A DNA stretch of 64,000 nucleotides from an uncultured Gammaproteobacteria bacterium (GTDB lineage Bacteria; Patescibacteriota; Microgenomatia; Levybacterales; GWA1-39-11). Made by a program: the position numbers and the translations under genes. Position 1 is the first letter of the stretch. The number at the start of each line of letters is the position of its first letter. The notes beneath the pieces are model-generated. The model did not search any database and was not told where the DNA came from. It was given only the letters and a program-made list of their open reading frames with translations. Below are positions 28,975 through 58,431 of this stretch, piece after piece. The DNA lies in contig CAYPEN010000002.1 in the NCBI GenBank assembly GCA_964409875.1, forward strand, positions 210,630 through 274,629, in the 5' to 3' direction.

Positions 28975-28979
28975 TGAAA

Positions 28980-31902: not shown

Positions 31903-31907
31903 AAAAA

Positions 31908-40537: not shown

Positions 40538-40538
40538 G

Positions 40539-43289: not shown

Positions 43290-45434
43290 TTAGCTACTTT
43301 GTTGCAATGGGTTTTGTTGGAGATTTTGGACCGGTTGGGGTATGCCGGGAGAAGGTGGGGGTAGTGGTGAGGGGGAGGCGGACGTTGAGAGAATTGGTGG
43401 GTTTTGAACAAATTGTTGCACTGTGGGAGCCGGCGGTTGTGTTGGTGGGGTTTGTGTGATGGGTTGGATCGCAGGTGGCATTTGTTGTGGGAACGGCTGG
43501 AGTGGTGCCTGTTGTTGTGGCTGTGGGACTGCCGGACCTGCTAGGGGATCTTGTGGCGTGGGCTCTACGGGGGGTTGCGGATTTTGTACCTCGTTTTGCA
43601 TGGTGTCTTGAGGTTTTGAGGTGACAAGGTCGTATTCAAACTGGGACGCGACGAATTGTGCCGTAACGTGGTTTTGCCCTGCAAAAAGAAGACCTTCGCC
43701 CACTTGGGCTGTTAGGAGATACTGCTTTTCTCCCTCTGACAGGTTGAGGGTTTTAGCAAGCGCTTCAACTTCGGAAGAGCCCTGCTTTAGAAGTATTTGC
43801 ACAGAAGAGCTTGAAAGAATAGCTTTTCCATAATCTGAAGAAAGGAAGTCCTCAATATCTTGCGTAAGGGTGGTGAGTCCCAGGTAGTATTTTCTGCACC
43901 TCTTTGCAATTCCCTGCAAAAATGCGGCCGAATCCGGGTAGCGCATCATGTACCACGCCTCATCAACAATGAGGATCCTTTTCTTCATTTTTGTTCTGAC
44001 ACGAGTCCATATAAAGTCCAAAATAACGTGCATTGCAATTGGTCGCAACACATCTTCTAATTGTCTCAAGGAAAAGACGGTGAGTTGATTTCTTACATCG
44101 TAATTTGTCTGATGGTTAAAGAGGCCTGAAAATCCGCCTTTGACATATTTTTCAAGCCTGAAGGCCAGTTCTTTTGCGTCTGCCTCTTCCATGTTGAGAA
44201 GCGTCTTGTATAGGTCTTCAAGAATCGGTGGCTCATTTTTATATGTTGATGGGTCTGGAGATATCCCTTTTTGTTTATAGGCAAGAACAATTGCGCGGTC
44301 CAATATTGCTTCTTGGGTGGCCGACATTTCGCCCATCATGGTTTTTAAAAGCCCATGCACCGAAAGTATTTTTACCCCTAGTTGCGCTTCTGATTGGTCA
44401 TCGGGAAGTAGGGCAAAGGGGTTAATTTTTATCTCAGAGTCTTTTGAAAAAGAGATGTATTCTCCTTCAAGAGATTGGCAGAGCACCTTGTATTCGTCCT
44501 CGGGGTCGATAATGAGAACCTCAGTGTCAAACATCATTTGTCGCAGCACTTCAAGCTTCACAAGAAAAGACTTCCCCGAACCTGATTTTCCAAAGACAAC
44601 AGAGTTGGCGTTTTCAAAAGAGAACCTGTCAACGATGACTAGGGAATTATTAAGCGTGTTTATCCCATAGAGAATTCCATTGGGGTGAGAAATTTCGTAG
44701 GAGGTGAATGGAAACGTGGAGGCAACCGAGGTTGTATCCATGTTCCTTGTGGAGAACAATTTGTCATTTCCAGTAGGAAGGGTGGTTTTGAACCCATCCT
44801 CCATCTGAAGGGTGGCTGGCTTTATGATAAGCAGATTTGATGAGAGAAGCGACATCAGCTCTTTCGAGCGGAGGTTAAGATCTTCTATGTCTTGAGAGGC
44901 AAGTGTTACATAGAGCCCAAATTGGTAGAAGCGCTCAAGGCCCCGCGCCAATTCTTCGCGAAGGGCAATTGCGTCTTCTAGTTGGGCGCGGATTTTGGGA
45001 TCGGGTTCGAGCCCCTGCTGGGTATCTGACTCAATAGTGGCCTCCATTTCGGCGATTTTTCGTCTCAAATTTGAGAGAACATCCTTTGACTCGACTGGGT
45101 AGATAAACATTGAGATATTCATGGTCTCTTTGTAGTCGATAAGAATTGAAAGCCAATTGGGGGAAACCTGGCGGGGATAATCAACGACAAAAAAGGTGCG
45201 GTAGTAGGTGTCCCCTACGCGAATATGTTTGAAATCCACCTCAACAGAAGAGGGGGCAATTATGTCGACTATTGATACCGAACCCTGCTTTAGCGCTTCA
45301 GTTGTTTTGGCATTAACGGGTGGTTTTGCCGGAGCCTGCTGTGCTGCCGGGGCCGTTGTCACCGGAGGAGTCTGTCCCTGAACGGGGGTAGCCGGAGCGG
45401 GTTGTTGTGTTGGTTGTTTTTTCTTTCCGAACAT
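43290..45434 (-). CDS. VirB4/TrbE/PrgJ-family type IV secretion ATPase with Pro/Gln-rich C-terminal tail
   Basis: 714 aa. Walker A 'FGKSGSGKSFLVK'. Walker B 'ILIVDEAWYMM' (DEAW is the VirB4 hallmark). N-terminal 'YYRTFFVVDYPRQV' CagE/TrbE/VirB4 signature. Confidence 0.8.
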   Translation of the reverse strand: MFGKKKQPTQQPAPATPVQGQTPPVTTAPAAQQAPAKPPVNAKTTEALKQGSVSIVDIIAPSSVEVDFKHIRVGDTYYRTFFVVDYPRQVSPNWLSILIDYKETMNISMFIYPVESKDVLSNLRRKIAEMEATIESDTQQGLEPDPKIRAQLEDAIALREELARGLERFYQFGLYVTLASQDIEDLNLRSKELMSLLSSNLLIIKPATLQMEDGFKTTLPTGNDKLFSTRNMDTTSVASTFPFTSYEISHPNGILYGINTLNNSLVIVDRFSFENANSVVFGKSGSGKSFLVKLEVLRQMMFDTEVLIIDPEDEYKVLCQSLEGEYISFSKDSEIKINPFALLPDDQSEAQLGVKILSVHGLLKTMMGEMSATQEAILDRAIVLAYKQKGISPDPSTYKNEPPILEDLYKTLLNMEEADAKELAFRLEKYVKGGFSGLFNHQTNYDVRNQLTVFSLRQLEDVLRPIAMHVILDFIWTRVRTKMKKRILIVDEAWYMMRYPDSAAFLQGIAKRCRKYYLGLTTLTQDIEDFLSSDYGKAILSSSSVQILLKQGSSEVEALAKTLNLSEGEKQYLLTAQVGEGLLFAGQNHVTAQFVASQFEYDLVTSKPQDTMQNEVQNPQPPVEPTPQDPLAGPAVPQPQQQAPLQPFPQQMPPAIQPITQTPPTQPPAPTVQQFVQNPPILSTSASPSPLPPPSPGIPQPVQNLQQNPLQQSS

Positions 45435-45453: not shown

Positions 45454-46152
45454 TTAAAGTATGACGTTTTGGACATCCTGTGAATTAAAATCGACCGTTA
45501 TCGTATCATTGTTGAGTATTTCATAAAAAAGTTTTATCAATTCTTCGTGTTGAAGTGGACGGGCAGAAAGCCCCATTCTTTCAACCTGAGCCTGAATAAC
45601 TGAGCGTTTCGAAATGAGAGCATTTTTTGCTTGGTCTGCAAAGGTGCCTGTTTTTGTTTGCTGTTGGGGTTTTTGTCCTGGGGGAGTAGTGGTTTGTGCT
45701 CCCAGAGTTCCCTCAAGATACGAATAGGGAACGACAATATAAATCTTTTTATCCAAAAGTCCCTCATTTTTTACAAGTTCGTCGATGAATTGCCGGTACA
45801 TTGCCAAGTGTTCTTTTATCCGCTGGTTCTGTAGGTCGTCAATTTTTTTATCCAAAAGCTTAAGGTAGTTTCCCATATCTACCCGTTTTGAAATAATGAG
45901 GATTTGTATAGCAAAAGAAAGAGAATTAATAAGTGACATATATCCATAAATTCGTGCGTTTTGCTCATCTGCTGATAAAAGAAAGAAATTGACTGAAGAG
46001 ACTTCCAAAACAGAGCAGGCATTTTTACCTTTAAACAACACAACATCATCGACGATATCAACTATTTCTGTAAAGTCTTGCGTTGTTGAGTGTATTTTGT
46101 CTTTTTTTGCCATATTTTTATACCGCCGCTTGTGGAGCCGGCGTATTGCCAA
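45454..46152 (-). CDS. hypothetical protein between the VirB3-like and VirB4 genes
   Basis: 232 aa, no clear motif. Overlaps the upstream gene by 35 nt. Confidence 0.4.
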   Translation of the reverse strand: MAIRRLHKRRYKNMAKKDKIHSTTQDFTEIVDIVDDVVLFKGKNACSVLEVSSVNFFLLSADEQNARIYGYMSLINSLSFAIQILIISKRVDMGNYLKLLDKKIDDLQNQRIKEHLAMYRQFIDELVKNEGLLDKKIYIVVPYSYLEGTLGAQTTTPPGQKPQQQTKTGTFADQAKNALISKRSVIQAQVERMGLSARPLQHEELIKLFYEILNNDTITVDFNSQDVQNVIL

Positions 46153-47440
46153 AGAGCTCTCTTCGTAGTCGTTCGCGCTGATCTATTGAAAAAATTTCTA
46201 GCGGGTTGAATATTTTTCCATCAAGCGCAATCTGGATTTGCTCAAATTCATTTTGCTTCCGCGGGTCTTCGAGAATAACGATATAGTTGCCGTTAGGAAG
46301 GGGAGTTGCTGCGGCAAATTGTCCCAATGCATTTGTCTTAAATGCTCTTACAGGGACGCCTTGTTCGTTCATAATTTCAACCAAAATATTGGGGAGCACT
46401 TTTCCCCTAGGGTCGCGGATAATGCCCATGACGATATTGGGGGTATCGGGGAGTTGGGGAAAGCCCGCCTTAAGACTTTTTTCAGGAGTGACAGTGGTAA
46501 CGCTGGCACTTTGACCGGGGGCAACTGTGGGGGCAGATGCAGTTGTTGCAGTGGGGATAGACGGTTGTAGCGGAGACGCATCGGGAAGAGGATTTGATTC
46601 TATCTGTTGCACAACGTGTGTTATTTGTGGAGTTTGTTGTGGCTTGGTAGTGGCAGCAGGCGCTAAGGGAACCTCCTCCTGTGTTTTTGCGGGGGCCTGG
46701 GGTGTTACGAGTTTTGTATTGGCATTGGTATCAAGGTTTTGTATCTTTTGGGCAACGCTTACCACGACCTGTGGGTCAGGAGCGGCAGATGGAGTTTGTG
46801 TGGTCGGTAGTTCATGGGGAGTTGTTAGCTCTTTTACCTCTTTTGTTGCAATAGTAACCGAGGGGGTAACAATTTGCAGAGCCGGAGGTATCTCTTTAGG
46901 TGCATCATCAACTCTTTGTACGGAAGGGCTTGCCGAATGGGAGGCCTCATTAAGATACTCGTTGATATTGGTGAGAACTGCTTGTTCTCTTTCATCCGGT
47001 TTGTAAGTCTTTTTAAGCGTTTTATAGAGAAGGGCACGCCTTGAATCGCGGTCATTAGTCTGAGGGGTTGCTGTTGGTTCCGTTTTTTGGACGACCTGAA
47101 GCTTCGGGGTAAAGAAGTCAAAGATTAGCGCTTCGGCCCCTTTTTTCCTGAAGACATACTGGTTTTCGGCAGGGAGCGCTTTAAGAAAATTTTTGAGCAT
47201 TACGTCCATCGGGCGCCCCTCAATTGGAATAAAAGCAATTGCAGCACCCAGTCCTCCAAAAAGAAGAGCAAGAGGCACTTTTATTACACCCGAAACGGGA
47301 AGAATAAAACACACTCCCGCAAGAATGCCGCCTCCCAATATGTAGAGGAATTGTTTTATGGTGACGCTGCCAATAAGCTTAAATTTAAATCCAGTAACGT
47401 CCTGGGGAATAGGGTGATTCTCCATAATAAATGCAAACAC
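46118..47440 (-). CDS. PrgI/VirB3-like two-TM protein fused to Pro/Thr-rich linker and C-terminal transthyretin/CarboxypepD_reg-like beta-sandwich
   Basis: 440 aa. N-terminus 'FKFKLIGSVTIKQFLYILGGGILAGVCFILP...LLFGGLGAAIAFIPIEGRPMD' is PrgI-like. C-terminus 'MGIIRDPRGKVLPNILVEIMNEQGVPVRAFKTNALGQFAAATPLPNGNYIVIL' fits the CarboxypepD_reg pattern. Confidence 0.45.
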   Translation of the reverse strand: MFAFIMENHPIPQDVTGFKFKLIGSVTIKQFLYILGGGILAGVCFILPVSGVIKVPLALLFGGLGAAIAFIPIEGRPMDVMLKNFLKALPAENQYVFRKKGAEALIFDFFTPKLQVVQKTEPTATPQTNDRDSRRALLYKTLKKTYKPDEREQAVLTNINEYLNEASHSASPSVQRVDDAPKEIPPALQIVTPSVTIATKEVKELTTPHELPTTQTPSAAPDPQVVVSVAQKIQNLDTNANTKLVTPQAPAKTQEEVPLAPAATTKPQQTPQITHVVQQIESNPLPDASPLQPSIPTATTASAPTVAPGQSASVTTVTPEKSLKAGFPQLPDTPNIVMGIIRDPRGKVLPNILVEIMNEQGVPVRAFKTNALGQFAAATPLPNGNYIVILEDPRKQNEFEQIQIALDGKIFNPLEIFSIDQRERLRRELFGNTPAPQAAV

Positions 47441-47936: not shown

Positions 47937-49925
47937 ATGCCAGATCCAACACGACTTGAGAGACCGATGTCTGCTGCTGAGGCACAATTTGGTGGTGCCG
48001 GAAGAACATTGACTCCCGAGCAGCAGCAGTCGTGGGAGGCCGGTCAAAGAATTCAAAGAAAACGGGCAGAGAATACCAGTGAGCAATCTGTCCTTGAGAG
48101 TTTTGTTCCCCACCCACCGCCTACAGAAGCACGCGTAAGACACGTTAATAATGAGAATATTGGTACCACCAGAAAAGGGGGAAGCGGGCCGGATGCAGGA
48201 GAGAAAAAATATACAGGCAGAGGTGAGCAGCGTTCGCGAGAGTATAGGGAGAAGGCGGATAAATTTGCAGGACTTTCACAAGAGCTTCTTGCAAAAGGAC
48301 TCGACAAATTAGAAGATTCCCCCGGCTTTACCGCAGCCCAAAAAAAAGAATTCCTAACAAACGAAATGCTTGAAGCCTCAAAGTCCTGGCCGCTTGCGCG
48401 CGGCGTATTGGAATCCTACGGTCCTTATGGTGATCCCGCTGCTGATGCTGCAAGGAATGCATTAATGGAGAAAATGCTTCAAGACCCAAATTTTCTGAAA
48501 AAGCTCGCCAACCATTTTGGTGAAATTTACGATGGAGATGGAGCCTTATTGAAAGAAGTCGTCGCAGAAGCTCAAGAAGAATTTGAGAAAGCAAAGGCGA
48601 AAAAAGAGGCTAAGGAAAAAGAATTGGCCGAAGTTGATGCTAGGTTGGCTGTTTTAGATGTTGCGCACACTAAATATCAACCAGGCGGGGTTGATTATAT
48701 AAGGATTGAAGCTTTGCGTACGCAATCGGCAACATGGCCAGCTGATATCGACAATGCAAATGTTGAAATAAATAGACTTAATTCGGAAATGGCTCGGTTA
48801 AGACCTCAGCAGTTTAAAAGAAGGGTCGTTCCGGACTACGATAATACCGTTACTCCTCCAGTTAGGATCGGGTCGCATGAAGAGACAGTTGAAGATACAG
48901 CGGTGACTGGTACCCTGACAACTCTTCGAAGCGAGCTAGAAACACAGCAACGGATCTTAAGAGATATTAAAGAAAAACAGGCGAAACTGGAGGCCTATAC
49001 TGGAGAATCATCGAAGATTGACCAGGAGAGAAATGAGTTACGACAAAAACAGGCACAACTACAGGGAGAAGTCGGAGAACTAGATGTAGAATACCAGATG
49101 GCAGAGGGAAAGTTTAATGCCCAAAAAGCCCTCAGGAGGGCAGAAGAAGAGGAATTTGTGAATAAAATTCAGGGAATGGTAAGAGAGGCCGGAAGACAAT
49201 ATGTCAAAGAAGATGCAAGGCAAAACGAGGCTGCACAAAAAAAGCTTATTGAAAAAGCTATATCTGATGCAAATGATAGAGATGAAAAGCAGCTTCAAAC
49301 ATGTATGAACGAAAATTGGAGGAGGACTAAGCAGGTGGGTGTCGTTCGCACGCGTAATGTCGAGGAGGTTAACAAGGAAGTTGTCCGTTCGACCTATGAA
49401 CGTGCGATTCAGGAACGCGGCATGGACTGGTATGTAAGAAATTCTATGGAAACCCATCTCAACACGCTTACGCCGGGTAGCCCTGAGTACATCGAAGAAA
49501 GGGCGCGGCTTGATAGTAAATTTGCTGACAAAGAATTTATGAAAAAGATGAATGCTATGGCTATGGAGCGGCTCTTTAAGAATTATCTTGAGAGCGGTGG
49601 AAAGTTGAAGCGGGAAGATGTTTCGATATTGACCGAAACCGAAGGAGGGCTTGGAGCGGTTGATAGAGCTCTTGATGCTAACAAGGCGGTGAGTGCAGCT
49701 ATAGAAAAGCTTAAGGGAGAAAAGGGCTTTAGCGGATCGAACAGAGAATTTATCACGCGTATCGCAAAAGACAAGAGGACGCACGGGGCGCTTGCCGGAC
49801 TTCTGGCAGCTCTTTTTGCAGCTCCATTTGCCATATCAGGCCTTACTGTTGGGGCGGCGTTATATGAAAAAGGTGCTGAGCTTGCATGGAGTGGTTCAGG
49901 AGCGCTGGCGGCAGCTATCAACTAA
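47937..49925 (+). CDS. large coiled-coil protein with C-terminal hydrophobic anchor
   Basis: 662 aa. Extensive heptad-like charged repeats. C-terminal 'ALAGLLAALFAAPFAISGLTVGAALY'. Confidence 0.45.
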   Translation: MPDPTRLERPMSAAEAQFGGAGRTLTPEQQQSWEAGQRIQRKRAENTSEQSVLESFVPHPPPTEARVRHVNNENIGTTRKGGSGPDAGEKKYTGRGEQRSREYREKADKFAGLSQELLAKGLDKLEDSPGFTAAQKKEFLTNEMLEASKSWPLARGVLESYGPYGDPAADAARNALMEKMLQDPNFLKKLANHFGEIYDGDGALLKEVVAEAQEEFEKAKAKKEAKEKELAEVDARLAVLDVAHTKYQPGGVDYIRIEALRTQSATWPADIDNANVEINRLNSEMARLRPQQFKRRVVPDYDNTVTPPVRIGSHEETVEDTAVTGTLTTLRSELETQQRILRDIKEKQAKLEAYTGESSKIDQERNELRQKQAQLQGEVGELDVEYQMAEGKFNAQKALRRAEEEEFVNKIQGMVREAGRQYVKEDARQNEAAQKKLIEKAISDANDRDEKQLQTCMNENWRRTKQVGVVRTRNVEEVNKEVVRSTYERAIQERGMDWYVRNSMETHLNTLTPGSPEYIEERARLDSKFADKEFMKKMNAMAMERLFKNYLESGGKLKREDVSILTETEGGLGAVDRALDANKAVSAAIEKLKGEKGFSGSNREFITRIAKDKRTHGALAGLLAALFAAPFAISGLTVGAALYEKGAELAWSGSGALAAAIN

Positions 49926-49935
49926 GGTGTCTACC

Positions 49936-50631
49936 ATGCCCTGGGTATTTTTTCTCATAGAATTTCTTACTCTCTTTTTTACCTCCCGTTTTCTTTTTAA
50001 ATCATTTTATGCGCTTTTATATTTTGTGTTCCGAAGTAAGCGCATAGCAGTTGTTCTACTCTCTGCATTTTTCCTCCCCGGAGTCTTTATCCATGAATTG
50101 GCGCATCTTATTGTTGCAGAGCTTGTAAGAGTAAAAACGCATGGAATTGAATTTGTGCCGGAACTAACCGGTACTTCGTTAAAAATGGGGAGCGTAAGAG
50201 TGGAGAAGAGCGATGTTTTTAGAAATCTTTTTATAGGTATTGCCCCTATTATTGTCGGCATTTTAATACTGACATTGTCGATGTATGGCATGAGCCGGAT
50301 GTTTTCGTATTCCCAAATCTTCTCATCCCCCTTGTCTTTTGTGATAACGGTTCTGATAGGGTATGTAGTTTTTGTAATAACAAACACGATGTTTTCAAGC
50401 AGAAAAGATGTCGAGGGAGCAGTCGAGCTTTTTCTTGGGGTGGCAATTATTGTCGGAGCGCTATACCTTATGGGGCTCACACCGCACACATGGATTGTAA
50501 AAACGGCAGGACAAAAACAAGTAGTTAGCTTTGTGCAGCAAGTCGTATGGCTTCTTACAGTTCCTGTCGGGATAAATATTGCCGTTGTAATAGGGGCATA
50601 CCCTCTACTGAAAAAGCTTCGTCTTGCTTAG
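49936..50631 (+). CDS. polytopic membrane protein with HExxH motif (putative zinc metalloprotease)
   Basis: 'FIHELAHLIVAEL' lies inside a TM segment. Start at the internal ATG 49936 (the track ORF starts at 49792, overlapping the previous gene). Confidence 0.35.
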   Translation: MPWVFFLIEFLTLFFTSRFLFKSFYALLYFVFRSKRIAVVLLSAFFLPGVFIHELAHLIVAELVRVKTHGIEFVPELTGTSLKMGSVRVEKSDVFRNLFIGIAPIIVGILILTLSMYGMSRMFSYSQIFSSPLSFVITVLIGYVVFVITNTMFSSRKDVEGAVELFLGVAIIVGALYLMGLTPHTWIVKTAGQKQVVSFVQQVVWLLTVPVGINIAVVIGAYPLLKKLRLA

Positions 50632-50632
50632 G

Positions 50633-50929
50633 CTACAATGAAGGATTTGCTATTTGACTGACTCCGGTGAGGGTTGAGATAAGATTTACTATGAAGAATG
50701 AAAGGAAGATGAGTACGAGCCCGACAACGGCCCAGGTAATGGTTTTTTTTGCGCTATCAATCTTTGCCTGGTCACCTTTTGACATGATATATTGTGCCCC
50801 TCCCCAGATAATAAGGACCAATGCGACGACACCTGAAAAAACGAGCGCAGCATTAATGACGTTGTGAATTACGATTGGAATGCATCCGAGTGTTGCAACA
50901 TCGCCGTTTTCGAGGCATTTATCCCACAT
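50633..50929 (-). CDS. T4SS pilin-like (VirB2/TrbC-like) small membrane protein, paralogue 1
   Basis: 98 aa. Two TM helices flanking 'IWGGAQYIMSKGDQAKIDSAKKTITWAVVGLVLIFLSFFIVNLI'. This motif is shared with the next three genes. Confidence 0.5.
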   Translation of the reverse strand: MWDKCLENGDVATLGCIPIVIHNVINAALVFSGVVALVLIIWGGAQYIMSKGDQAKIDSAKKTITWAVVGLVLIFLSFFIVNLISTLTGVSQIANPSL

Positions 50930-50936
50930 ATATGTT

Positions 50937-51350
50937 TTATGAGCCGGTTAAGGTAGGAAGTTGTAGGTTAAAGAGGCTCAGGTTGAAGAGCCCAAGGATG
51001 AGGTTGAGAATAAAGAACGCCAGAAAAACAATAATAAGTCCGATAATAGCAGCAATGATTTGGTTTCTGGCAGCTTCAACTCCGCCTTTGTCTCCTCCTG
51101 ATGTTATCCATTTGATGCCTCCCCAGATAAGAAAGAGGAGTGCAACAAGAACCGCGATAACAAAAACAATAGTAATAACAAATCCCAAAACGGAACCAAG
51201 GCTTAGGCCTTTTCCAGCACATGCAGCTTTTAAAGCGCCACTATTTGCGTTGGGGCTTTGGCATGGATCCAGCGAGTCTGCTGCATAAAGATATGGCGCG
51301 GTTGCAAGGAATAGGTAGGAAGCGGATGCTACTGCAGCGAGTTTTTTCAT
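50937..51350 (-). CDS. T4SS pilin-like protein, paralogue 2 (signal peptide)
   Basis: 137 aa, 'LIWGGIKWITSGGDKGGVEAARNQIIAAIIGLIIVFLAFFILNLI'. Confidence 0.5.
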   Translation of the reverse strand: MKKLAAVASASYLFLATAPYLYAADSLDPCQSPNANSGALKAACAGKGLSLGSVLGFVITIVFVIAVLVALLFLIWGGIKWITSGGDKGGVEAARNQIIAAIIGLIIVFLAFFILNLILGLFNLSLFNLQLPTLTGS

Positions 51351-51398
51351 ATCTTATTTATTGTTATCAGGTTTGTTTTCCCTTGTCAAGTACAAGGC

Positions 51399-51731
51399 TT
51401 AGCCAAGCGACAAATTAAATAAGTCAACTTTAAAGACTTGTCCTAAAAAGTTTATTACAAAAAAAGCAAGGAAGCAGATAAGAAGCCCGAAAAGAGCGTA
51501 AATAATGGTGCGCCTTGAGCTTTCAATCTTTTGTTTGTCTCCCTCCGACCATATCCACGTAAGAGCGCCCCACACAATGAATCCAAGCGAGAGAATAATG
51601 GCTGCAATAAGAATAAGAGCCAGCCCAAATCCGATTATTTTTCCTCCGCTTCCGGAAAGTCCTTCGGTCGGAATACCGGAGGGGGCGGGAACGGGAGTTC
51701 CATTAATGGAAAGTGAAAGTAATTGTTTCAT
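51399..51731 (-). CDS. T4SS pilin-like protein, paralogue 3
   Basis: 110 aa, 'IVWGALTWIWSEGDKQKIESSRRTIIYALFGLLICFLAFFVINFL'. Confidence 0.5.
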   Translation of the reverse strand: MKQLLSLSINGTPVPAPSGIPTEGLSGSGGKIIGFGLALILIAAIILSLGFIVWGALTWIWSEGDKQKIESSRRTIIYALFGLLICFLAFFVINFLGQVFKVDLFNLSLG

Positions 51732-51776
51732 GGTTAATGGCTAATAGTTGATAAATTGTTAATCATTAACTATTTT

Positions 51777-53234
51777 TTACCCGAAGCCCGGGATCTTTAA
51801 GATATCGACTCCTATTATCGATAGTATCACATAGGCAAAAATGATGAAAGCAAGGCCGATGATTGCAGAAGTAAGTTGCGAACGGGCTTGGGAAATAATC
51901 TCCTTGTCACCTCTGGAGTACATGAATTTATAGGCGGCACGGATAATAATTGCCATTGCGGCAATTCCGGCAAACGACAACACAATAGTATATAGGCTCT
52001 TTATAAATGAAAGAGGGTCAAGTGGAATTTTTCCGAGAAGCGCGACATTGAATGCTTTGCAATTCCCAGTGTCTTCATCTATTTCACCAGCGGCACAGGG
52101 AATGGGAGGGACAGGTGGAACCTTGTCGATATCTTCACGGTCTGAATTGTTAGGGTCATAAACTACCTTCAGAATTTTCAATTCCTTTTTCTTCGAGAGA
52201 ATTTGGAAATAAATTTGCATGTAGGTGTATCCTCCCTCACAATTGTTTCCAATTCCAAATGGCCTGTTGTCACTTACTCTCTCGTTTATTTTTGCAACGT
52301 ATGTGCCGCTACTAAGTCCTCCGTTTGATTTATCTTTCCCCCGGCCGTATGTATTTACAGCCCCCAACTCATCTGCCCGTTTTGTAACGGAGTAACCGGT
52401 CCCGTCAAGTATGTGCTCGGGGTGGGGCTTTTGTCCGATATCTGCATACCATTGGGTGTTAATTCCAACGGTCAAATTTTGTGTCCACCAATCTTTTTCA
52501 GGAACCGTATAGCAATGTTCCTTTTTGTAACCATTGTCTGTTCCCTCGACGACCACTTGATAATTATTTTTGTTGTCGCCTCCGGGACGCCTTCCCCAAA
52601 GTGTTATTGCGACGGGTTGGCTGGTAACGTCTGAAGAGTTAAGGCGCACAAGCGGATAGGAGTGTGCAACGAAAAACTTTGCAGCAACAATTTCTCCTCC
52701 GTCTTTTCCGGGGTCAGGCCTATCAGACTTATCATCATAGTCAGCATACAGGCTTAGTTTGTATACATGGCCTTCATGGAAGTAGTCGCGTGATTCCTTG
52801 CATTTTTCTTTTAATTTCCCACCTACTTGGTCTGTTGATTTGAAACCTTGCACTTGCACTCCTTTTGCTGTTTCTTGTCCGTTGCCGCATACACTAAGTG
52901 TTATAGAGCCGTCCGATCCGGGCTTGAAATGGTTGCTGCAGCTGTCTTTTTCGTAACCGCTGCAGATGGAGTACTGTGTGCCGGGGTCAAGGTTAGTAAA
53001 TTGCACCCATACAATGCGGGTATTCCCGTCAATTCTTGTCTCCGGGTGGTTGTAGAGGTCATACAAAAGTTCGGGGTTGTCGCCAACAGGCAGGTCATTG
53101 AGCTTGTAGGAAATGGAGCTAGGCGAAGGCGGGGTTGTGGGAGCTGGGGTAGGTGTTTCTTGAGCTAAGACAACACTAGTAAAAGAGGAGGTAAATTGTA
53201 AGAACAAAAGAAATACGGCAATAAATCGTTTCAT
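51777..53234 (-). CDS. large secreted Cys-containing protein with C-terminal pilin-like module (adhesin-pilin fusion)
   Basis: 485 aa. Signal peptide. About 390-residue extracellular region with multiple Cys. C-terminus 'AAYKFMYSRGDKEIISQARSQLTSAIIGLAFIIFAYVILSII' matches the paralogue motif. Confidence 0.5.
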   Translation of the reverse strand: MKRFIAVFLLFLQFTSSFTSVVLAQETPTPAPTTPPSPSSISYKLNDLPVGDNPELLYDLYNHPETRIDGNTRIVWVQFTNLDPGTQYSICSGYEKDSCSNHFKPGSDGSITLSVCGNGQETAKGVQVQGFKSTDQVGGKLKEKCKESRDYFHEGHVYKLSLYADYDDKSDRPDPGKDGGEIVAAKFFVAHSYPLVRLNSSDVTSQPVAITLWGRRPGGDNKNNYQVVVEGTDNGYKKEHCYTVPEKDWWTQNLTVGINTQWYADIGQKPHPEHILDGTGYSVTKRADELGAVNTYGRGKDKSNGGLSSGTYVAKINERVSDNRPFGIGNNCEGGYTYMQIYFQILSKKKELKILKVVYDPNNSDREDIDKVPPVPPIPCAAGEIDEDTGNCKAFNVALLGKIPLDPLSFIKSLYTIVLSFAGIAAMAIIIRAAYKFMYSRGDKEIISQARSQLTSAIIGLAFIIFAYVILSIIGVDILKIPGFG

Positions 53235-53270
53235 GTATTAATCGTAGCCAAAAACGGGATACTTTGCAAT

Positions 53271-54593
53271 TTAATCCTCGAATTTATATCCGCGGCCCTT
53301 GAGGGTTTGGATGTAGTGCGGGTGATTGGGGTCTGCTTCAATTTTCTTCCTGAGCCTGTAGATTATTTGGTCAAGCGCCTGGTCGGTTACCCCTTCTTGG
53401 GTCTTCGTGTCTTTCCAGGTGGCTGTTATAATTTCATCCTTTGTGCAAATGCGTCCTTTGTTTTCAAGTAAGAAAAGTAATAGTCTAAATTCGGAAGGGG
53501 AGAGAAGGTCAGATATAGGCTGTCCTCCTTTTGTGATTTCGTTGGTGTTGGGGTCTATTTCAATTTTTTCCGTTGTTGATATGGAAAGGTTGTTGATGAA
53601 CTCTGATAAAAGGCCAATTTGAATAACCCCGTCTTTTATGAGGCCGGAGTACGTCAAAAATTCAGGAATTGGCTCCTGAGTTTTCTTTGTCAAAAATAAC
53701 TTGAGAAAAAGCTGCTCTGAAGGGAGAAGGCTTAGCCAAATTTCGTACAATGCTCCTTGTACTGCTGTTTTTTTAAGGAGGAAAGAAGAAAGTATTCCCT
53801 GAGGTATTTCGCTCAATATAGCCTCGTATGAGGCCCGTGTTAATTTGCCGTGCCCTCCGGTAAGTGCAATAAGCTCTTTTTTGAGCGCTTCATCGGCTTT
53901 TTTCCCTGTCGTTTTCTCCAAGTACGAAAGCCGGAATTCCATGCCAGTCTTGTCATACAGGTTGACGTACACAAAGTTGCCGACGACAAAATCATAAAAA
54001 TCAGAAAAAAGAGTTGGTTCCAAAAGCTCCTCAAGGGGTCTTCCGACAGCAAAAATACATGAAAACCTATATTTTGCCCTGTTTCTTAATATCTTTAAAT
54101 TGTTGAAAAACTGACTTGTCACTTCGGGAATATAGTCATGGAAACGGTCAAGAGAAAAAACGACCGTCAGTTCTTTTTCTTCACAGAGAAAATCAATACT
54201 TTGCTTGAGTGCTTGAAAAAGGATGAGCTCGTCATGAAAAGGAAGAGCTTCTTTAGTAAATGTATTAATCCGTTCTGCCTCTTCAACAAGTCCTCTTTCG
54301 TTAAGCGAGTATGAAAGGGAAATGAGGAAAAATTTTGTGGTATCAAGAAGCGTTCTTTCTTTTAGCTCCGAGCAATCAAGGTAGACGAAGTGAACATATG
54401 GTTCAAGCTCTTTTAGGTTATGAAGGCGAACCTCTTTGTTATAAGAAAGAAGGTTGAGGATATTGTTTTTTCCACCCCCGGGAAGCCCGATTAGTTGCAT
54501 AGAAAGGCCTTTTTTGATGAAAGGGACCAGGGAGGAAATTTCATGCTCGCGGGTTGTTGGTGGATAGAGGCTTTCAAAATGTTTGACTTGCAT
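53271..54593 (-). CDS. transcriptional regulator: N-terminal AAA/ORC-like NTPase domain plus C-terminal OmpR/PhoB-type winged helix
   Basis: 440 aa. P-loop-like 'LIGLPGGGKNNILNLL'. C-terminus 'LLSPSEFRLLLFLLENKGRICTKDEIITATWKD...ALDQIIYRLRKKIE...IQTLKGRGYKF' is a clear trans_reg_C signature. Confidence 0.6.
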   Translation of the reverse strand: MQVKHFESLYPPTTREHEISSLVPFIKKGLSMQLIGLPGGGKNNILNLLSYNKEVRLHNLKELEPYVHFVYLDCSELKERTLLDTTKFFLISLSYSLNERGLVEEAERINTFTKEALPFHDELILFQALKQSIDFLCEEKELTVVFSLDRFHDYIPEVTSQFFNNLKILRNRAKYRFSCIFAVGRPLEELLEPTLFSDFYDFVVGNFVYVNLYDKTGMEFRLSYLEKTTGKKADEALKKELIALTGGHGKLTRASYEAILSEIPQGILSSFLLKKTAVQGALYEIWLSLLPSEQLFLKLFLTKKTQEPIPEFLTYSGLIKDGVIQIGLLSEFINNLSISTTEKIEIDPNTNEITKGGQPISDLLSPSEFRLLLFLLENKGRICTKDEIITATWKDTKTQEGVTDQALDQIIYRLRKKIEADPNHPHYIQTLKGRGYKFED

Positions 54594-54699
54594 ATATCAA
54601 TTGTACCTCAAATGAGGCCTCTTTTGTTGATGTTTTGTGAGCATTTTGTAAGGCAAACGTCAAGGTGAGAGGCGTCTTCTTTATTACAATTAGCGCACT

Positions 54700-57600
54700 A
54701 TGTCAGAACAAGAATATTCCTATCTTTCTTCTCAAAACGAGGCTGCATTGACAAAGAAAACGGTGAACCGTACACTGAAGAGTACAGCAAGTCCCCGTAT
54801 GGAAGAAGATCAGGAAGATATAAAAAAGGTCACGAAAAAGATAAAGGATATTGTCCGGGAGAGACAGCGCCGTGGTATCAGTGCTGACCAAGCGGCTGCT
54901 TCAAAAACGGTGTGGGAGACGATGCTCGGAAGAAAACTTACCGAGCAGGAGTCAAAAACAACTGTTGAAAAAGGTTCCCCCCTGGGTCCTGAGAACGAGC
55001 CGACAAAAGAGGAGTTGGGAATTGTTGAGAAGATAGTCAAAAATCAGAAAAAGTACGAGGACCTTATTAGTTCTACCAAAACTTATACCCCCGAGCAGTT
55101 GCGCCAAACCTTTTCGGGAGATTTGGGGAAAATCGTCACTATTATGCTGACTGAGGGGGTGGTTGGTGAGGAGAGGTATTTACACGACCTCAATGAGACA
55201 ATTGCAAAAAAAGGGCCGCAGATGCACCAGGAGGTAGCCGATATTGTCAAGAAAATCGAGCAAGATGTAGCGGAGAGAAAAAAGCAGGAAGCATTGGAGG
55301 AGGAGAAGCGCATGAAACCTGAGGGGGTTGACCTTCGAAAAGAAAAGGTGCGGGAGGCATGGGATAAGCATTTGGAGGAAAAAAGGAAAAGGGGCGAGCA
55401 GATAACAGAAGAATATTTAAAGCGGGCTAACGAACAGATAGATAGGGGAATAATGCCAAACAATGGGCCGGAGGGTGGGTTTTCAACGTTTGATTATGAC
55501 AAGTATGACAATGTTGAGCTGCGGGTTTTAGGAATAGAGCTGCGTACCCTTGGAGAGACAAATCAGTTAGATGAGAAAGTAATCCAAAGGCAAATTGGAA
55601 GGCTGAACCGCTTACTCGCTGAAAGAAAAATTACCGAACAAGAATTCAATACATTTAGAGCAGATTTAGGAGGGAAATTACAACAATGGCTCGGCGAGCG
55701 AGAGAAGGGGCTTGGTGTTTCACCAGAGCTTAACAAGCAGGACAAAAGCCAGGCGGAAAACAATGCAAAGGAAAAATTGGAATCCGCCATTGCCTCAATT
55801 CGTGGTGACGAGGAAAAAGCACTATTTGAGCAAAAGAAGAGGGAAATTCTTACTGATGATCCTATCGACCTATTGATTACAGAGCACATAAAAGATACGG
55901 AGTTGGCAAATGAGATAAAAAGAGAGTGGCTCGGGCTTCAAGAGGTAGAGAATCCGGCGGAGTTTAAGGAGAGGACAAAAGCGCTCATTGAGAAAGTGCT
56001 GGCGATAAAGCCACCCGAGGAGGAGAAGGAGGGGTCATCAAAAAGTGACGCCGAACTTGCCGAAAAAGCGGAAAAAAAGGGATTGAAGTTCAACAGTATC
56101 TATCAGGAAGGGATTGAACAGGGATGGTTTGACCCGGACCTTTTGAGAACTGAGCCGCGAAGCATCGTGGACTTGGCCAAATGGATTATGATAACTGATG
56201 ATGCCCGCATTTGGGGACCAGAGGGAGACCATCCGCTTTTTATGGTAAAAAAAGTCGGTGTCCCAGAAAGAGATCCTGCAACCGGTGAGCAATTGAGAGA
56301 TAAAAACGATAAGCTCATATGGAAAGAACAAGCCGAGATCGAATTTCAGTCGGACAGTTTTATTATCTGGCTACGTAATAAGATGATTGAGCTGCATCTT
56401 GATAACTCAACCGACCCCATGAGTCCCCTCACACAAGTTGCGATACGTACGCTCTATAGCCCTGTCAATTTGATTTCAATGAAATACGACAAGCAGCGGT
56501 ACTTTTCAGACCCTAAAACGGGAGAGATTATGGATGACCTTTACAATGAAGTCATTCTTGAAGCCTGGCTTTTCGGCGTGAGGCGCAATAATGACCTTGC
56601 GTACCGTCAGGCAATGAATAGTGACGACAAGCTTTTTGAGACAATGGTTGGACTCAATTCCAAAAATGAGCACACAAATTCCACAAACGCTGCAGATTAT
56701 TACTCAATGGCCGATAAATATGTGAGAGGATACGATGAGAATGGGAGGGAAAGACAAAGGGATACGAAAGTTGGAGACGCTATTCTTTTATCAAACGCAT
56801 TATACCGGAATATTTCAGATATTGAAAAACTGCGTCAACTTCTGCCTTCTGATAGCCCACTTTTTACCCGCGAGGGGTGGGAAAATGCAGTACGGATAAT
56901 TCAAGGGAAGGGACAATGGGAGCAAGTTAACGAGTATGCCAACATGCGGTTCGATGCAAATAGGGTGTATGTAATTGACCCTGCAACCAAGCAAGAGCAG
57001 GTAATTTTTGACGAGAACGGAAAGCTTAACGAAGCAAATTTCATAAAATATCTCAACTTCTTTGTTTCACCAACCTCTCTTCAGACAAATGTCGCTCACG
57101 TTAGGGAGCTTGTAAAACTATCTATTGCCAAAGAAATCGGTCTTGATGACGGTCTTTCATATCCTCCCGACGAAGAAACATGGGATAAAGAGGAGCAGCA
57201 GGCAAAAAATGAGAGGCGAAGTATATCTATTAAAGGAAGACGGAATACAAAGCGCATCAATTTGGAATTTGCTGAAATCAATTCATATGTTGAGCAGCGG
57301 TGGAACGGGGCGGCCGCGCGCTCAGATACAAATGTAAGAGGGTATGACGCATGGACAAAAATGTTTGCGCAAAGATATAGGGAGAGACAGTCAGGAATTG
57401 ACACAATGGGGCCGATTGGGAACCCAAATGATATACCAATTCTTAAGCAGCTTGCACCCGATATGTGGCTTGCGCTAAAGACTGAGAATGGAGAAGTAGC
57501 TCAGGAAGTATTCGAGAAGATCTTGAGCGTTATTCCAAGACTATATAAAGAGGCAAAGACAGATGAGGAACGCGCTCAGGTGCAGGAGCTTCGCAATAAA

Positions 57601-58431
57601 CTTATCAGTACGCTTCGCTTCCCTGAGGGGACACAACTTGATTGGGCGTCTAACCAAGTGATGAGAGCTGCAAATGTGTGGCATGCGATGCTTGACACGG
57701 AGGACCTTGGGTTTAACAAGCTTGTAACGCGCAATGTATGGGGCGTTTTGCAGTATAGTAGGGCAGATTTTGAGAAAACAGTAAAGGACACATTTATCAA
57801 AAACAGGCGGTATGCGTTCAAGTCAAATAACGCTCTCAATTACGGTGCAAAAGAACGGGTGTGGGTGGGGGAGAAAGATGGGGTACCAATCTACAAAGAG
57901 ATGACGGTGGCAGAATATATGTTCGGGCACAATGTGACCGCTCCTCTTATCGATGACTGGTATGACGGGAAAGCAAAAATAAAAAAAAGAGTTAATCCAA
58001 CAACAGGAAAAGTAGAGGATGATGTTACTTATAAGGGGGCGCAGCTTGAGGAATACCTGGCAAGCTCTGAGGGGAGAAACCATTTGTTTAAAAACGTCTG
58101 CCGGGCGGGTCTTGCCGCACAATTGAAGGCGCACAGCAATTGGCAGGGGACTGGGGAGCGGTGGAGCAATTCTATGGTAAGGAATTTCGTAGACTCACTC
58201 AAGACGCTGCGGGCATATAAGGAAGAACCCCCGGGTAGCGGAAATGAAGTGGTAGACACCTCAAAAGGTGCCTTTTTTTCCCAGGAGGATATTGATTGGA
58301 TTTTGGAGCAGGCCGGACGTCAGAAGTGGAGAATGGCCCTCGAAGATGCAGCAGTTACGGGAATAGATTTGAGTAAAAGTATTCCAGAACTTCTAAAAGC
58401 ATTTATGGGTGGGATTGTGGATTTCTCTTAA
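54700..58431 (+). CDS. giant hypothetical protein (1243 aa), charged/coiled-coil N-terminal third
   Basis: Single uninterrupted ORF. No signal peptide or NTP-binding motif. Divergent from the regulator gene. Confidence 0.5.
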   Translation: MSEQEYSYLSSQNEAALTKKTVNRTLKSTASPRMEEDQEDIKKVTKKIKDIVRERQRRGISADQAAASKTVWETMLGRKLTEQESKTTVEKGSPLGPENEPTKEELGIVEKIVKNQKKYEDLISSTKTYTPEQLRQTFSGDLGKIVTIMLTEGVVGEERYLHDLNETIAKKGPQMHQEVADIVKKIEQDVAERKKQEALEEEKRMKPEGVDLRKEKVREAWDKHLEEKRKRGEQITEEYLKRANEQIDRGIMPNNGPEGGFSTFDYDKYDNVELRVLGIELRTLGETNQLDEKVIQRQIGRLNRLLAERKITEQEFNTFRADLGGKLQQWLGEREKGLGVSPELNKQDKSQAENNAKEKLESAIASIRGDEEKALFEQKKREILTDDPIDLLITEHIKDTELANEIKREWLGLQEVENPAEFKERTKALIEKVLAIKPPEEEKEGSSKSDAELAEKAEKKGLKFNSIYQEGIEQGWFDPDLLRTEPRSIVDLAKWIMITDDARIWGPEGDHPLFMVKKVGVPERDPATGEQLRDKNDKLIWKEQAEIEFQSDSFIIWLRNKMIELHLDNSTDPMSPLTQVAIRTLYSPVNLISMKYDKQRYFSDPKTGEIMDDLYNEVILEAWLFGVRRNNDLAYRQAMNSDDKLFETMVGLNSKNEHTNSTNAADYYSMADKYVRGYDENGRERQRDTKVGDAILLSNALYRNISDIEKLRQLLPSDSPLFTREGWENAVRIIQGKGQWEQVNEYANMRFDANRVYVIDPATKQEQVIFDENGKLNEANFIKYLNFFVSPTSLQTNVAHVRELVKLSIAKEIGLDDGLSYPPDEETWDKEEQQAKNERRSISIKGRRNTKRINLEFAEINSYVEQRWNGAAARSDTNVRGYDAWTKMFAQRYRERQSGIDTMGPIGNPNDIPILKQLAPDMWLALKTENGEVAQEVFEKILSVIPRLYKEAKTDEERAQVQELRNKLISTLRFPEGTQLDWASNQVMRAANVWHAMLDTEDLGFNKLVTRNVWGVLQYSRADFEKTVKDTFIKNRRYAFKSNNALNYGAKERVWVGEKDGVPIYKEMTVAEYMFGHNVTAPLIDDWYDGKAKIKKRVNPTTGKVEDDVTYKGAQLEEYLASSEGRNHLFKNVCRAGLAAQLKAHSNWQGTGERWSNSMVRNFVDSLKTLRAYKEEPPGSGNEVVDTSKGAFFSQEDIDWILEQAGRQKWRMALEDAAVTGIDLSKSIPELLKAFMGGIVDFS

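Follow-up and report, generated by a model that had tools for sequence, protein, structure and literature searches.

A run of four adjacent pilin-like genes, one of which encodes a far larger product than the others, raises the question of what kind of structure such a set might build and what the large member would contribute to it. The four lie on the minus strand of the 64,000-nucleotide stretch of DNA analyzed here (the window) and encode, in the order in which they are read, proteins of 485 amino acids (aa; 51777–53234), 110 aa (51399–51731), 137 aa (50937–51350), and 98 aa (50633–50929); we refer to these as classes 1 to 4, class 1 being the “large pilin.” The number and sizes of these co-directional open reading frames (ORFs) are exactly those given in a preliminary description of the locus, and they are separated by 45, 48, and 7 bp in the same order. 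A promoter and terminator scan of positions 50400–54800 yielded no more sites than shuffled sequences did, and the case for an operon is drawn from the short gaps and conserved gene order only. The window’s genome belongs to Candidatus Levyibacteriota, with 89% identity to JAYRRJ010000057.1. A saccharibacterial origin, at first suggested by the cyo operon and the T4SS (type IV secretion system), was rejected because the nearest genomes belong to that group.

The proposal that the four proteins are paralogues holds well. They share a C-terminal two-helix membrane hairpin and all match the T4SS_pilin profile PF18895, far beyond what chance would give: the 98-aa and 137-aa proteins score 40.2 and 40.3 bits, above the gathering score of 26.6 bits, and the 110-aa and 485-aa proteins fall below it at 23.8 bits (E 5e-5) and 20.7 bits (E 4e-4; aa 411–474). 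All 56 orthologous modules examined, drawn from all four classes, likewise match PF18895 at E≤0.01. Pairwise BLAST among the paralogues gives 32–43% identity (E 1e-15 to 4e-3), compared with an average of about 25% in published Patescibacterial arrays (PMC12102498), and a profile built from the four modules matched no further ORF in the window. Hence “pilin-like” is apt in the sense of type IV secretion system (T4SS) pilins of the VirB2/TrbC-like, PF18895 kind, and not of type IV pilins. Similarity to the TrbC/VirB2 profile PF04956 itself is weak, with a best score of 17.2 bits (E 0.006; gathering score 27.9 bits) for the 98-aa protein only and E<0.01 in 11 of the 56 modules, and matches to CagC among these modules are also weak. 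NCBIfam NF045849, the Mbov_0395 pilin-like conjugal transfer protein of a Mycoplasma ICE, scores 33.3, 23.7, 16.4, and 21.5 bits across the four proteins against a cut-off of 40 bits and is a related family rather than one to which they belong. A search of the 56-module profile against all PDB sequences returned nothing significant (best E 0.18).

The sequence motif originally put forward as common to the four fits the 137-aa and 110-aa proteins as written but fails for the other two, the 98-aa protein having Y for W and L for I and the 485-aa protein differing at about six positions; furthermore, it spans the inter-helix loop and the second helix rather than lying between two transmembrane (TM) helices. 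A relaxed core, S-x-G-D-x(5-7)-[AS]-[RK]-x5-A-x2-G-L, occurs in 4 of the 314 window ORFs of at least 50 aa, and these are exactly the four pilins. Short TM-rich proteins do match many unrelated membrane families weakly in Pfam, and one might suspect that unrelated small hydrophobic ORFs simply resemble each other in composition by chance. That suspicion is refuted, and we give it practically no weight, given the specificity of the PF18895 matches (best E 3e-10), the confinement of the relaxed motif to these four ORFs, the 66,762 representatives of PF18895-type modules in public data (at 50% identity), and the conserved synteny described below.

Hydropathy, AF2 models, signal peptides, and cysteine pairs agree on a VirB2-type layout for all four proteins, in which a short basic loop joins two hydrophobic helices and the termini are extracytoplasmic. 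Each product would form a membrane hairpin whose two termini face outward, the short and slightly basic S-x-G-D…A-[RK] loop lying on the cytoplasmic side; this loop carries a net charge of 0 to +2 and a conserved A-[RK]. Signal peptides are found in classes 1 and 3, as are conserved C-terminal tails, and classes 1, 3, and 4 have a conserved cysteine pair immediately before helix 1, a position that requires the N-terminus to be extracytoplasmic. Class 3 combines its signal peptide (…LYA/ADS) with a C30, C44 pair before helix 1 and, after the hairpin, a conserved L-x-[LI]-P-T-L tail. Class 4 has no signal peptide and begins with a conserved MWxxC…GVATLxC segment containing its pair (C5, C16), and class 2 has neither signal peptide nor cysteine pair, its hairpin being preceded by a conserved MKxLALxIPG...PxGxPxGG segment. 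The AF2 model of class 4, built on a 4-sequence alignment, places the hairpin helices at 16–49 and 54–88 (pLDDT 70.6); its Foldseek comparison with the PDB gave nothing below E=1.7, a helical hairpin being too simple for Foldseek. The “LPTLTG” tail of class 3 was considered as a sortase signal and rejected, as it stands at the very end of the protein, followed by neither a TM segment nor a basic tail.

The genomic setting is informative. The array belongs to an oriC-proximal chromosomal T4SS locus of Levybacteria (Microgenomatia, Patescibacteria/CPR), which runs, in increasing coordinates, from dnaA/dnaN through genes for cell-wall hydrolases, VirB4 of the CD1110 type, and TrsD-like and PrgI/VirB3-like proteins to the pilins. 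In the window, dnaN and dnaA occupy 36870–39500, and beyond them, again in increasing coordinates, lie four more envelope genes (39497–43287, minus strand), which encode a 494-aa single-pass protein, a 231-aa Ig-like protein, a 190-aa M23 peptidase, and a 346-aa single-pass protein of no assigned function. The 494-aa protein has no family match and carries an IWGTESGFD (lytic-transglycosylase-like) motif, by which it may be VirB1-like. Next, all on the minus strand, come the VirB4 ATPase of monoderm (CD1110/MPF-FATA-like) type (43290–45434; PF19044 120 bits, and NF045971 408 bits against a cut-off of 325), the TrsD-like protein, which resembles the VirB4 N-terminal domain (45454–46152; NF041427 TrsD E 5e-7, NF045975 E 7e-11), and a membrane protein of the PrgI family (VirB3-like) that carries a CarboxypepD_reg-like extracellular domain (46118–47440; PF12666 28.8 bits). 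VirB4, TrsD-like, and PrgI thus share a locus with the pilins at a distance of 3–7 kb from the array, or 3–11 kb if the M23 gene is included. Across 78 related genome loci, the TrsD-like gene is present in 46 and the PrgI-family gene lies downstream of the array in 47; in relatives, PrgI, TrsD, and VirB4 follow the last pilin gene in the same direction, sometimes after a gap of just 46–175 bp.

Other neighbors are more loosely assigned. Only 36 bp upstream of the large pilin gene and co-directional with it lies a gene for a 440-aa protein (53271–54593, minus strand) that joins an N-terminal P-loop ATPase-like region to a C-terminal OmpR/PhoB-type winged helix (Trans_reg_C 76.9 bits, with NCBIfam winged-helix matches); it is the array’s immediate upstream neighbor in 54 of the 78 loci and is a candidate operon regulator. 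Convergent on the last pilin gene is a polytopic membrane protein (49792–50631, plus strand; true start probably near 49936) identified by its HELAH (HExxH) sequence and TM segments, with a weak YydH/LiaK-type metalloprotease match (19 bits, E 7e-4) and the same position in 21 of the 78 loci. It is a candidate membrane metalloprotease, and one could speculate about a role in pilin maturation. Farther upstream, in 60 of the 78 loci, is a gene for a 782-aa protein (58438–60786, minus strand) with a signal peptide, about eight TM helices, and a long C-terminal tail by hydropathy; it matches nothing in Pfam or NCBIfam, and its architecture alone makes it a candidate VirB6/TrbL-like protein. The part of the window examined yielded neither a relaxase nor a coupling protein, and a general Pfam scan of 43 window ORFs showed no TraF-like gene.

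Tandem VirB2-like arrays in Patescibacteria have already been published (Wang 2023, PMC10633639; Quiñonero-Coronel 2025, PMC12102498), the second study reporting 441 arrays of 2–11 genes; it found such arrays to be widespread and detected no adhesin among the T4SSs of Patescibacteria (PMC12102498). The present array has the features by which the published ones are defined, namely 2–11 tandem or one-gene-spaced VirB2-like genes with a VirB4 of the Patescibacteria clade (PMC12102498), the VirB4 here being placed by its monoderm-type profile. It also resembles them in its PF18895 modules, its tandem divergent copies, its association with a VirB4/PrgI/TrsD monoderm-type T4SS near dnaA, and the abundance of such arrays in Microgenomatia. 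The S. epibionticum array, which is essential (PMC10633639), differs in that it comprises six small members of ~100–185 aa (SEML1_0014-0019) with no large ectodomain fusion, whereas there are exactly four genes here. Both the T4SS locus adjoining dnaA/dnaN and the published Patescibacterial arrays had been overlooked in the preliminary description.

What is new here is the constancy of the set and the nature of its first member. The canonical four-gene array, in the fixed order large, ~110, ~138, and ~104 aa, occurs in 58 of the 78 related genome loci, many of which are titled “uncultured Gammaproteobacteria” and are counted here as Levybacteria, the titles being treated as deposit mislabels because these loci share Levybacteria synteny. 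Best cross-genome matches fall in the same position class in 228 of 236 cases, which defines four orthogroups in at least 58 genomes; a separate consensus and separate invariant residues mark each of them. Neither the fixed four-gene set nor a first member with a large ectodomain was found mentioned in the searchable literature.

This constancy bears on why the copies differ, for which both major/minor pilin specialization and antigenic diversification had been suggested. The first agrees with four orthogroups kept in the same order and with class-specific conserved residues. The second, in which tandem duplication would diversify antigens or host range as in the Bartonella Trw or Anaplasma VirB2 arrays, has in its favor the divergence of the copies and has been raised for Patescibacterial arrays (PMC12102498). 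In Bartonella and Anaplasma, too, a single T4SS locus holds several VirB2 genes that are tandem and divergent, but those arrays are read as variable, lineage-specific amplifications, and neither that pattern, nor variable copy number, nor diversifying selection is seen here. The 58 genomes agree in the number of copies, their order, and their size classes, and the dN/dS of the large gene against its closest relative is 0.036 overall, 0.025 for the ectodomain, and 0.046 for the hairpin, values that indicate purifying selection. Among close relatives, constraint on the ectodomain equals or exceeds that on the hairpin, and hence there is no arms-race signal. Diversification of this kind is thus largely refuted and very improbable; judged from the sequences, the four-gene set appears to be an ancient subunit specialization.

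The large pilin is the only array member with an ectodomain. Its signal peptide (aa 1–24, 53163–53234) is followed by a Pro/Thr linker (aa 25–40), a β-sandwich ectodomain (aa 41–395, 52050–53114), and the T4SS_pilin hairpin (aa 396–485, 51780–52049), all on the minus strand, with the protein ending in a conserved GVDILKIPGF tail. The expected fusion of a pilin to a secreted, Cys-containing domain is borne out at the level of prediction, as a Sec-exported, β-rich ectodomain leads into a membrane hairpin. The C-terminus is predicted to be membrane-embedded, with hydrophobic segments at 410–436 and 452–478 and AF2 helices at 407–439 and 444–478. Where at least eight cysteines had been noted, there are exactly eight (positions 91, 99, 116, 145, 241, 332, 380, and 392); all lie N-terminal to the hairpin, each is at least 90% conserved across 44 homologues, and they form four conserved pairs, of which C380–C392 sits just before helix 1. 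In the AF2 model (pLDDT 83) the ectodomain is β-rich, and Foldseek matches it to tandem FN3/Ig-like domains; of the folds suggested at the outset the Ig type was thus found, but no lectin match and no enzyme match. The modeled ectodomain is a generic string of FN3/Ig-like β-sandwiches, in which the fold searches identified no ligand-binding site. Pfam gives only faint FN3-type matches for the isolated ectodomain (E 0.07–0.14), and neither it nor the whole 485-aa protein matches VirB5/TraC or PrgB adhesins in Pfam or NCBIfam.

Most of the 63 homologues of the 485-aa protein are full-length and PF18895-bearing, and the ectodomain is found solely in fusion with the pilin module. It is detectable in 23 of the 58 class-1 orthologues at 22–58% identity, the hairpins there being 44–83% identical; in the remaining 35, the ectodomain has no detectable similarity to that of the window. 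Total length ranges from 154 to 647 aa and that of the ectodomain from ~75 to ~560 aa. By these comparisons, the ectodomain changes or is swapped from lineage to lineage while the hairpin stays conserved. Could it then be a structural spacer through peptidoglycan and S-layer, an analogue of a stalk or outer-membrane core, rather than a ligand-binding adhesin? A rod-like β-sandwich string with Pro-rich hinges at both ends would suit that purpose, and the strong purifying selection and the cell-wall hydrolases in the locus are consistent with it. Such a spacer is nevertheless unlikely, because a domain so variable in length, and dissimilar in 35 of 58 orthologues, is hard to square with a fixed envelope dimension.

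With moderate confidence, we propose instead that the four genes encode the VirB2-like subunit set of a monoderm-type T4SS, co-assembling into one hetero-oligomeric surface structure in which class 1 would be a minor, distal, host-binding subunit. Together with the VirB4-driven machine, the four ancient, non-redundant paralogues may build either a short pilus or a conduit that spans the envelope, with class 1 as the cell-distal tip or cap. Its disulfide-bonded FN3/Ig-like ectodomain, carried on an outward N-terminus, could serve as a lineage-specific domain for binding host or partner cells, and class 1 might functionally replace the VirB5/PrgB-type adhesins absent from Patescibacterial T4SSs. 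The large surface domain is thus a candidate for the adhesin apparently wanting in these systems. The S. epibionticum array, lacking a large member, implies that some such systems do without an ectodomain.

Comparison with known systems is instructive here. The set shares with VirB2/TrbC/TraA (PF04956) a hairpin of two helices joined by a short basic loop in the cytoplasm, termini outside, a VirB4 locus, and, in classes 1 and 3, the leader or signal peptide; unlike Gram-negative VirB2 systems, the host is monoderm, the VirB7/9/10 core is missing, and no TraF-type cyclase was noted. We know of no VirB2 with a large N-terminal globular domain, and a literature search turned up none. Modular type IV pilins, minor pilins with grafted adhesive domains, fuse a polymerization module to a functional globular module and are encoded beside plain pilins, a design principle that class 1 would share. 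They differ in machinery and fold, and class 1 has no class III signal peptide and carries its polymerization module as a C-terminal TM hairpin. The proposed cell-distal, target-binding role, possibly including nucleation of assembly, would parallel that of VirB5/TraC and PrgB, VirB5 being pilus tip and nucleator in Gram-negative systems (PMC12857230); there is no sequence or fold relationship, however, and the binding module would be grafted on the hairpin rather than being a separate protein. The Pam pili of CPR (PMC13278184), compared by description, are likewise built of surface filament proteins, specific to CPR and present in Microgenomatia too, with Ig-like β-sandwiches and paired cysteines, but these pilins are Sec-secreted and polymerize by donor-strand exchange, with no TM hairpin or T4SS link; given this other assembly principle, we rejected a Pam identity for the array.

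The principal alternative is that the hairpins form a membrane-embedded ring or channel of the T4SS rather than a pilus, much as systems without a pilus still depend on VirB2 for transfer, with the class-1 ectodomain as a membrane-anchored surface or cell-wall domain. To our knowledge, PF18895 proteins have not been seen to form a filament in any organism. Among curated families the Mycoplasma ICE one comes nearest, S. epibionticum homologues are annotated from structure as c-ring-like helical hairpins, and at least 145 cluster representatives are single polytopic chains of 2–15 tandem pilin modules, which suit an assembly within the membrane no less than an extruded filament. Monoderm T4SSs, moreover, are otherwise pilus-less (PMC12857230). 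Conversely, hairpins fused via external linkers could be extruded too, the conserved extracytoplasmic Cys loops and C-terminal tails suggest contacts beyond the bilayer, and the PF18895 family is named and treated as pilins, by name rather than experiment. We regard a ring or channel as possible, if somewhat doubtful. More tentative still is the strongest form of the pilus proposal: class 1 would be a “modular VirB2” in which, for the first time in a T4SS pilin, a target-binding domain is joined directly to a polymerizing hairpin; it would nucleate and cap a heteromeric pilus of classes 2–4, and its rapidly replaced ectodomain would set the host for docking and feeding.

The function of the Patescibacterial T4SS and pilin array has been called “completely unknown” (PMC11665869), and in the one Patescibacterium tested so far they are essential for epibiotic life. 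If the cassette is only a membrane complex, the gain from these observations goes no further than an improved annotation of a very large family (~67,000 representatives); if the modular VirB2 proposal is true, a monoderm T4SS gains pilus and adhesin in one four-gene cassette. At least for Levybacteria, the default antigenic-variation reading of such arrays is corrected. The fixed, phylum-wide four-subunit cassette, with exactly one subunit bearing a lineage-variable surface domain, provides a concrete and testable model, inviting the questions of which of the subunits touches the host, whether a shaft or a channel is built from the others, and whether ectodomain type tracks host range.

The window encodes, on the minus strand, four pilin-like genes at 51777–53234 (485 aa), 51399–51731 (110 aa), 50937–51350 (137 aa) and 50633–50929 (98 aa), referred to here in this order as classes 1 to 4 and separated by gaps of 45, 48 and 7 bp. 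The existence, sizes and position of these ORFs in the preliminary description are borne out by ORF calling and by PF18895, BLAST and HMM matches, and the pilin assignment was correct, PF18895 (T4SS_pilin) indicating the T4SS type. Specifically, against PF18895 the 98-aa protein scores 40.2 bits and the 137-aa protein 40.3 bits, above the cut-off of 26.6 bits, and the 110- and 485-aa proteins fall below it, at 23.8 bits (E 5e-5) and 20.7 bits (E 4e-4). In pairwise BLAST comparisons the four are 32–43% identical across their common module (E 1e-15 to 4e-3), and an HMM built from the four modules, searched against the whole window, matches just these four ORFs. Likewise, the relaxed core S-x-G-D-x(5-7)-[AS]-[RK]-x5-A-x2-G-L occurs in all four pilins and nowhere else among 314 ORFs of at least 50 aa. 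The proposal of a module common to all four therefore stands in this relaxed form; the literal motif first put forward fits the 137- and 110-aa proteins only and, rather than lying between two TM helices, covers the inter-helix loop and the second helix.

Every pilin C-terminus consists of two hydrophobic helices joined by a 12–14-residue loop, a hairpin whose helices AF2 places at 407–439 and 444–478 in the 485-aa protein and at 16–49 and 54–88 in the 98-aa protein. In the large pilin the hairpin follows a cleavable-looking signal peptide (hydrophobic residues 4–24, end VLA/QE), a disordered Pro/Thr linker, a beta-rich region (~41–404; AF2 pLDDT 83) and a Pro-rich hinge. Its Cys residues number exactly eight, all within the ectodomain (aa 41–395), and each is at least 90% conserved across 44 homologues. 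Foldseek searches of PDB and viral models match the ectodomain to strings of FN3/Ig-like beta-sandwiches only (for example fibronectin Fn7-10, tenascin, integrin beta4, transglutaminase barrels and phage tail proteins), with a best E of ~2e-4 and low TM-scores; Pfam gives at most faint FN3-type hints, and neither approach recognized a lectin or enzyme fold. On these matches, the predicted fold class is a “beta-sandwich stalk”.

A signal peptide is also present on the 137-aa protein and is absent from the 110- and 98-aa proteins. Directly before helix 1 lies a Cys pair in the 485-aa (C380/C392), 137-aa (C30/C44) and 98-aa (C5/C16) proteins, and the 110-aa protein has none. Taken together, the signal peptides, ectodomain and Cys pairs argue for an N-terminus outside, which would place the loop inside and the C-terminus outside; it follows that the predicted topology has both termini outside and the loop inside, the same as that of VirB2/TraA pilins. 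In addition, the A-[RK] conserved where helix 2 begins may be the counterpart of the lumen-facing basic residue in VirB2-type pilins. Across the loci of related genomes (L001–L084), the C-terminal tails, predicted to be extracytoplasmic, are conserved as GVDILKIPGF in class 1 (window 51780–51810) and L-x-[LI]-P-T-L-(T-G) in class 3 (50937–50960). The class 3 tail is LPxTG-like but the downstream anchor is absent; its possible roles are in processing or in contacts between subunits.

The large pilin has 63 homologues, in which the near-full-length matches span 387–610 aa, mostly with PF18895, and in which the ectodomain family is seen fused to the hairpin only. The nearest genome, whose large pilin is 89% identical, is a MAG of Candidatus Levyibacteriota, and nearly all related loci come from Levybacteria or Patescibacteria. 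The Levybacteria NrdR…pilin…VirB4…dnaA synteny is also present in many MAGs titled “uncultured Gammaproteobacteria bacterium” (L006–L009, L013, L014 and others), and in others titled Lysobacterales, Actinomycetota or Nitrospirota; such titles appear to be taxonomic placeholders or the result of mis-binning. At 40% identity, a further genome keeps the order NrdR, DUF5667, 667-aa protein, 1192-aa protein, winged-helix protein, pilins (492, 111, 132 and 102 aa) and HExxH protein. Exactly four same-strand pilin genes are present in 58 of 78 distinct genome loci, in the order large (154–647 aa, median 422), ~111, ~138 and ~104 aa. The best match elsewhere is the same-position module for 228 of 236 modules, and every place in the array has a distinct set of conserved residues, as in class 1 (PC…C…GY…S-x-G-x-x-E…AR…GLLFIIF…GVDILKIPGF) and class 4 (MW..C…GVATL.C). 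By sequence comparison, the four classes are ancient orthogroups, not recent duplicates; the fixed four-gene loci, same-position matches and class-specific residues support the major/minor pilin specialization suggested earlier.

Selection was estimated from one pair, the window and its 89%-identical relative, for which dS is ~1.2, near saturation, so that the dN/dS values are rough: 0.036 for the whole large gene, 0.025 for the ectodomain, 0.046 for the hairpin and 0.012–0.125 for neighbouring genes. The class 1 hairpin is 44–83% identical in 58 of 58 orthologues, and just 23 of the 58 have a detectable ectodomain match, at 22–58% identity. The low ratios within the pair and this patchy detection point to an ectodomain that is constrained within a lineage and strongly diverged or replaced between lineages. 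Antigenic or host-range variation has been proposed for Patescibacteria arrays by analogy with Bartonella and Anaplasma (PMC12102498); in the present array, antigenic diversification is not supported, given the fixed gene order, the ancient orthogroups and the low dN/dS of the large gene.

The neighbouring dnaA/dnaN, VirB4, TrsD-like and PrgI/VirB3-like genes place the array inside an oriC-proximal, monoderm-type T4SS locus. In coordinate order, a cyo-type oxidase operon, msrA and clpB come first, then dnaA and dnaN, then minus-strand genes for a 346-aa unknown protein, an M23 peptidase, an Ig-like protein and a 494-aa protein. VirB4 (NCBIfam CD1110 family, 408 bits against a 325-bit cut-off) is followed by the TrsD-like and PrgI/VirB3-like genes, by plus-strand genes for a coiled-coil protein and an HExxH membrane protein, and by the pilins. 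Immediately upstream of the large pilin lies a P-loop and winged-helix protein; beyond it are a soluble 1243-aa protein (54700–58431, plus; no family match; present in 25 of 78 loci), a 782-aa polytopic protein (58438–60786, minus; signal peptide, ~8 TM helices, long tail) and, last, DUF5667 and NrdR. Across the 78 loci the winged-helix gene is immediately upstream of the array in 54, and PrgI, TrsD-like and VirB4 genes are downstream in 42–47, the gap at times being just 46–175 bp.

Several of these neighbours invite functional assignment. The 782-aa protein, a conserved neighbour of the array in 60 of 78 loci, matches no family and is, by architecture only, a VirB6-like candidate. For the 494-aa protein (41803–43287, minus), neither Pfam nor NCBIfam gives a match. 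It combines an acidic N-terminus with a long tract rich in Ala and Gly, a single TM helix and an extracellular domain; within this domain is IWGTESGFD, which resembles a lytic-transglycosylase-type catalytic motif. Lying beside the M23 peptidase, the protein is a candidate VirB1 equivalent. The 440-aa winged-helix protein (53271–54593, minus), whose gene is 36 bp upstream of the large pilin, joins an N-terminal P-loop (GLPGGGKNN) to a C-terminal OmpR/PhoB winged helix without a receiver domain, and is likely a dedicated regulator of unusual architecture. The polytopic HExxH protein (HELAH; 49792–50631, plus, start probably near 49936) is convergent on the last pilin gene, weakly matches YydH/LiaK-type peptide-maturation membrane metalloproteases (19 bits) and has a homologue at the equivalent site in 21 of 78 loci; an enzymatic role in processing the pilins is possible.

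Elsewhere in the window, this Levybacteria genome carries a complete cytochrome bo3-type quinol oxidase operon (COX2, COX1, COX3 and subunit IV; 28123–32792, minus) accompanied by a UbiA-family haem O synthase; CPR bacteria are, as a rule, described as having no respiratory chain. A low-GC stretch (~5700–27000; GC 0.33–0.38 vs 0.42–0.46 in the rest) opens with a large serine recombinase (5720–7321). Alongside numerous small ORFs it encodes a heavy-metal P-type ATPase, a cation-efflux protein and a DsbD-like/cupredoxin protein, and it is probably an integrated mobile element.

VirB2-like arrays as a kind are already known. Wang et al. tabulated six PF18895 proteins of roughly 100–185 aa (PMC10633639), and Quiñonero-Coronel et al. 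(2025), who searched 3,035 genomes of Patescibacteria for PF18895 and PF04956, described 441 arrays with 2–11 VirB2 genes each, notably in Microgenomatia and Saccharimonadia, with T4SS loci near dnaA, most without a relaxase, and “no adhesins” (PMC12102498). A 2025 review describes Patescibacteria as having the only VirB2-bearing T4SSs among monoderms and speculates on a pilus. The Pam pilus, described recently in CPR bacteria, is a different system based on donor-strand exchange. In the literature searched, neither a VirB2-like hairpin with a large fused ectodomain nor a fixed four-orthogroup cassette came up; such absence is not proof of novelty, and the variant architecture, a four-class set with a large ectodomain member, is apparently undescribed so far.

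Family, topology features, locus, orthology, selection and fold class are established here, and the best-supported reading is that one T4SS-associated assembly contains all four hairpin proteins, each as a non-redundant subunit. Class 1 would be its minor, cell-distal subunit, displaying a lineage-specific binding domain, because it alone has an outward-facing globular domain, is encoded first in the array and has the most conserved hairpin of the four (mean same-class cross-genome score 100 bits vs 66–86). Functionally it would take the place of VirB5 or PrgB, and classes 2–4 would form the shaft or channel. Co-assembly, filament extrusion, tip position and adhesion are steps that we infer, and a role for the large subunit as tip adhesin, although plausible, is unproven. 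The chief alternative does without a pilus and has the hairpins form a ring or channel embedded in the membrane; it is favoured by a search of a 1.84-billion-protein representative library, in which the family has 66,762 members at E<=1e-3 and the top-scoring relatives are single chains with 2–15 tandem modules. Among the proteins from that search (P0064–P0213), these “polypilins” (e.g. P0064, P0068, P0076 and P0122) include P0064, with a signal peptide and six hairpins in 552 aa, and P0076, with 15 modules in 1775 aa; they are polytopic by construction. Polypilins bear on whether this pilin family makes filaments or membrane rings. The array described here is a variant architecture of a published kind that lends itself to testing.
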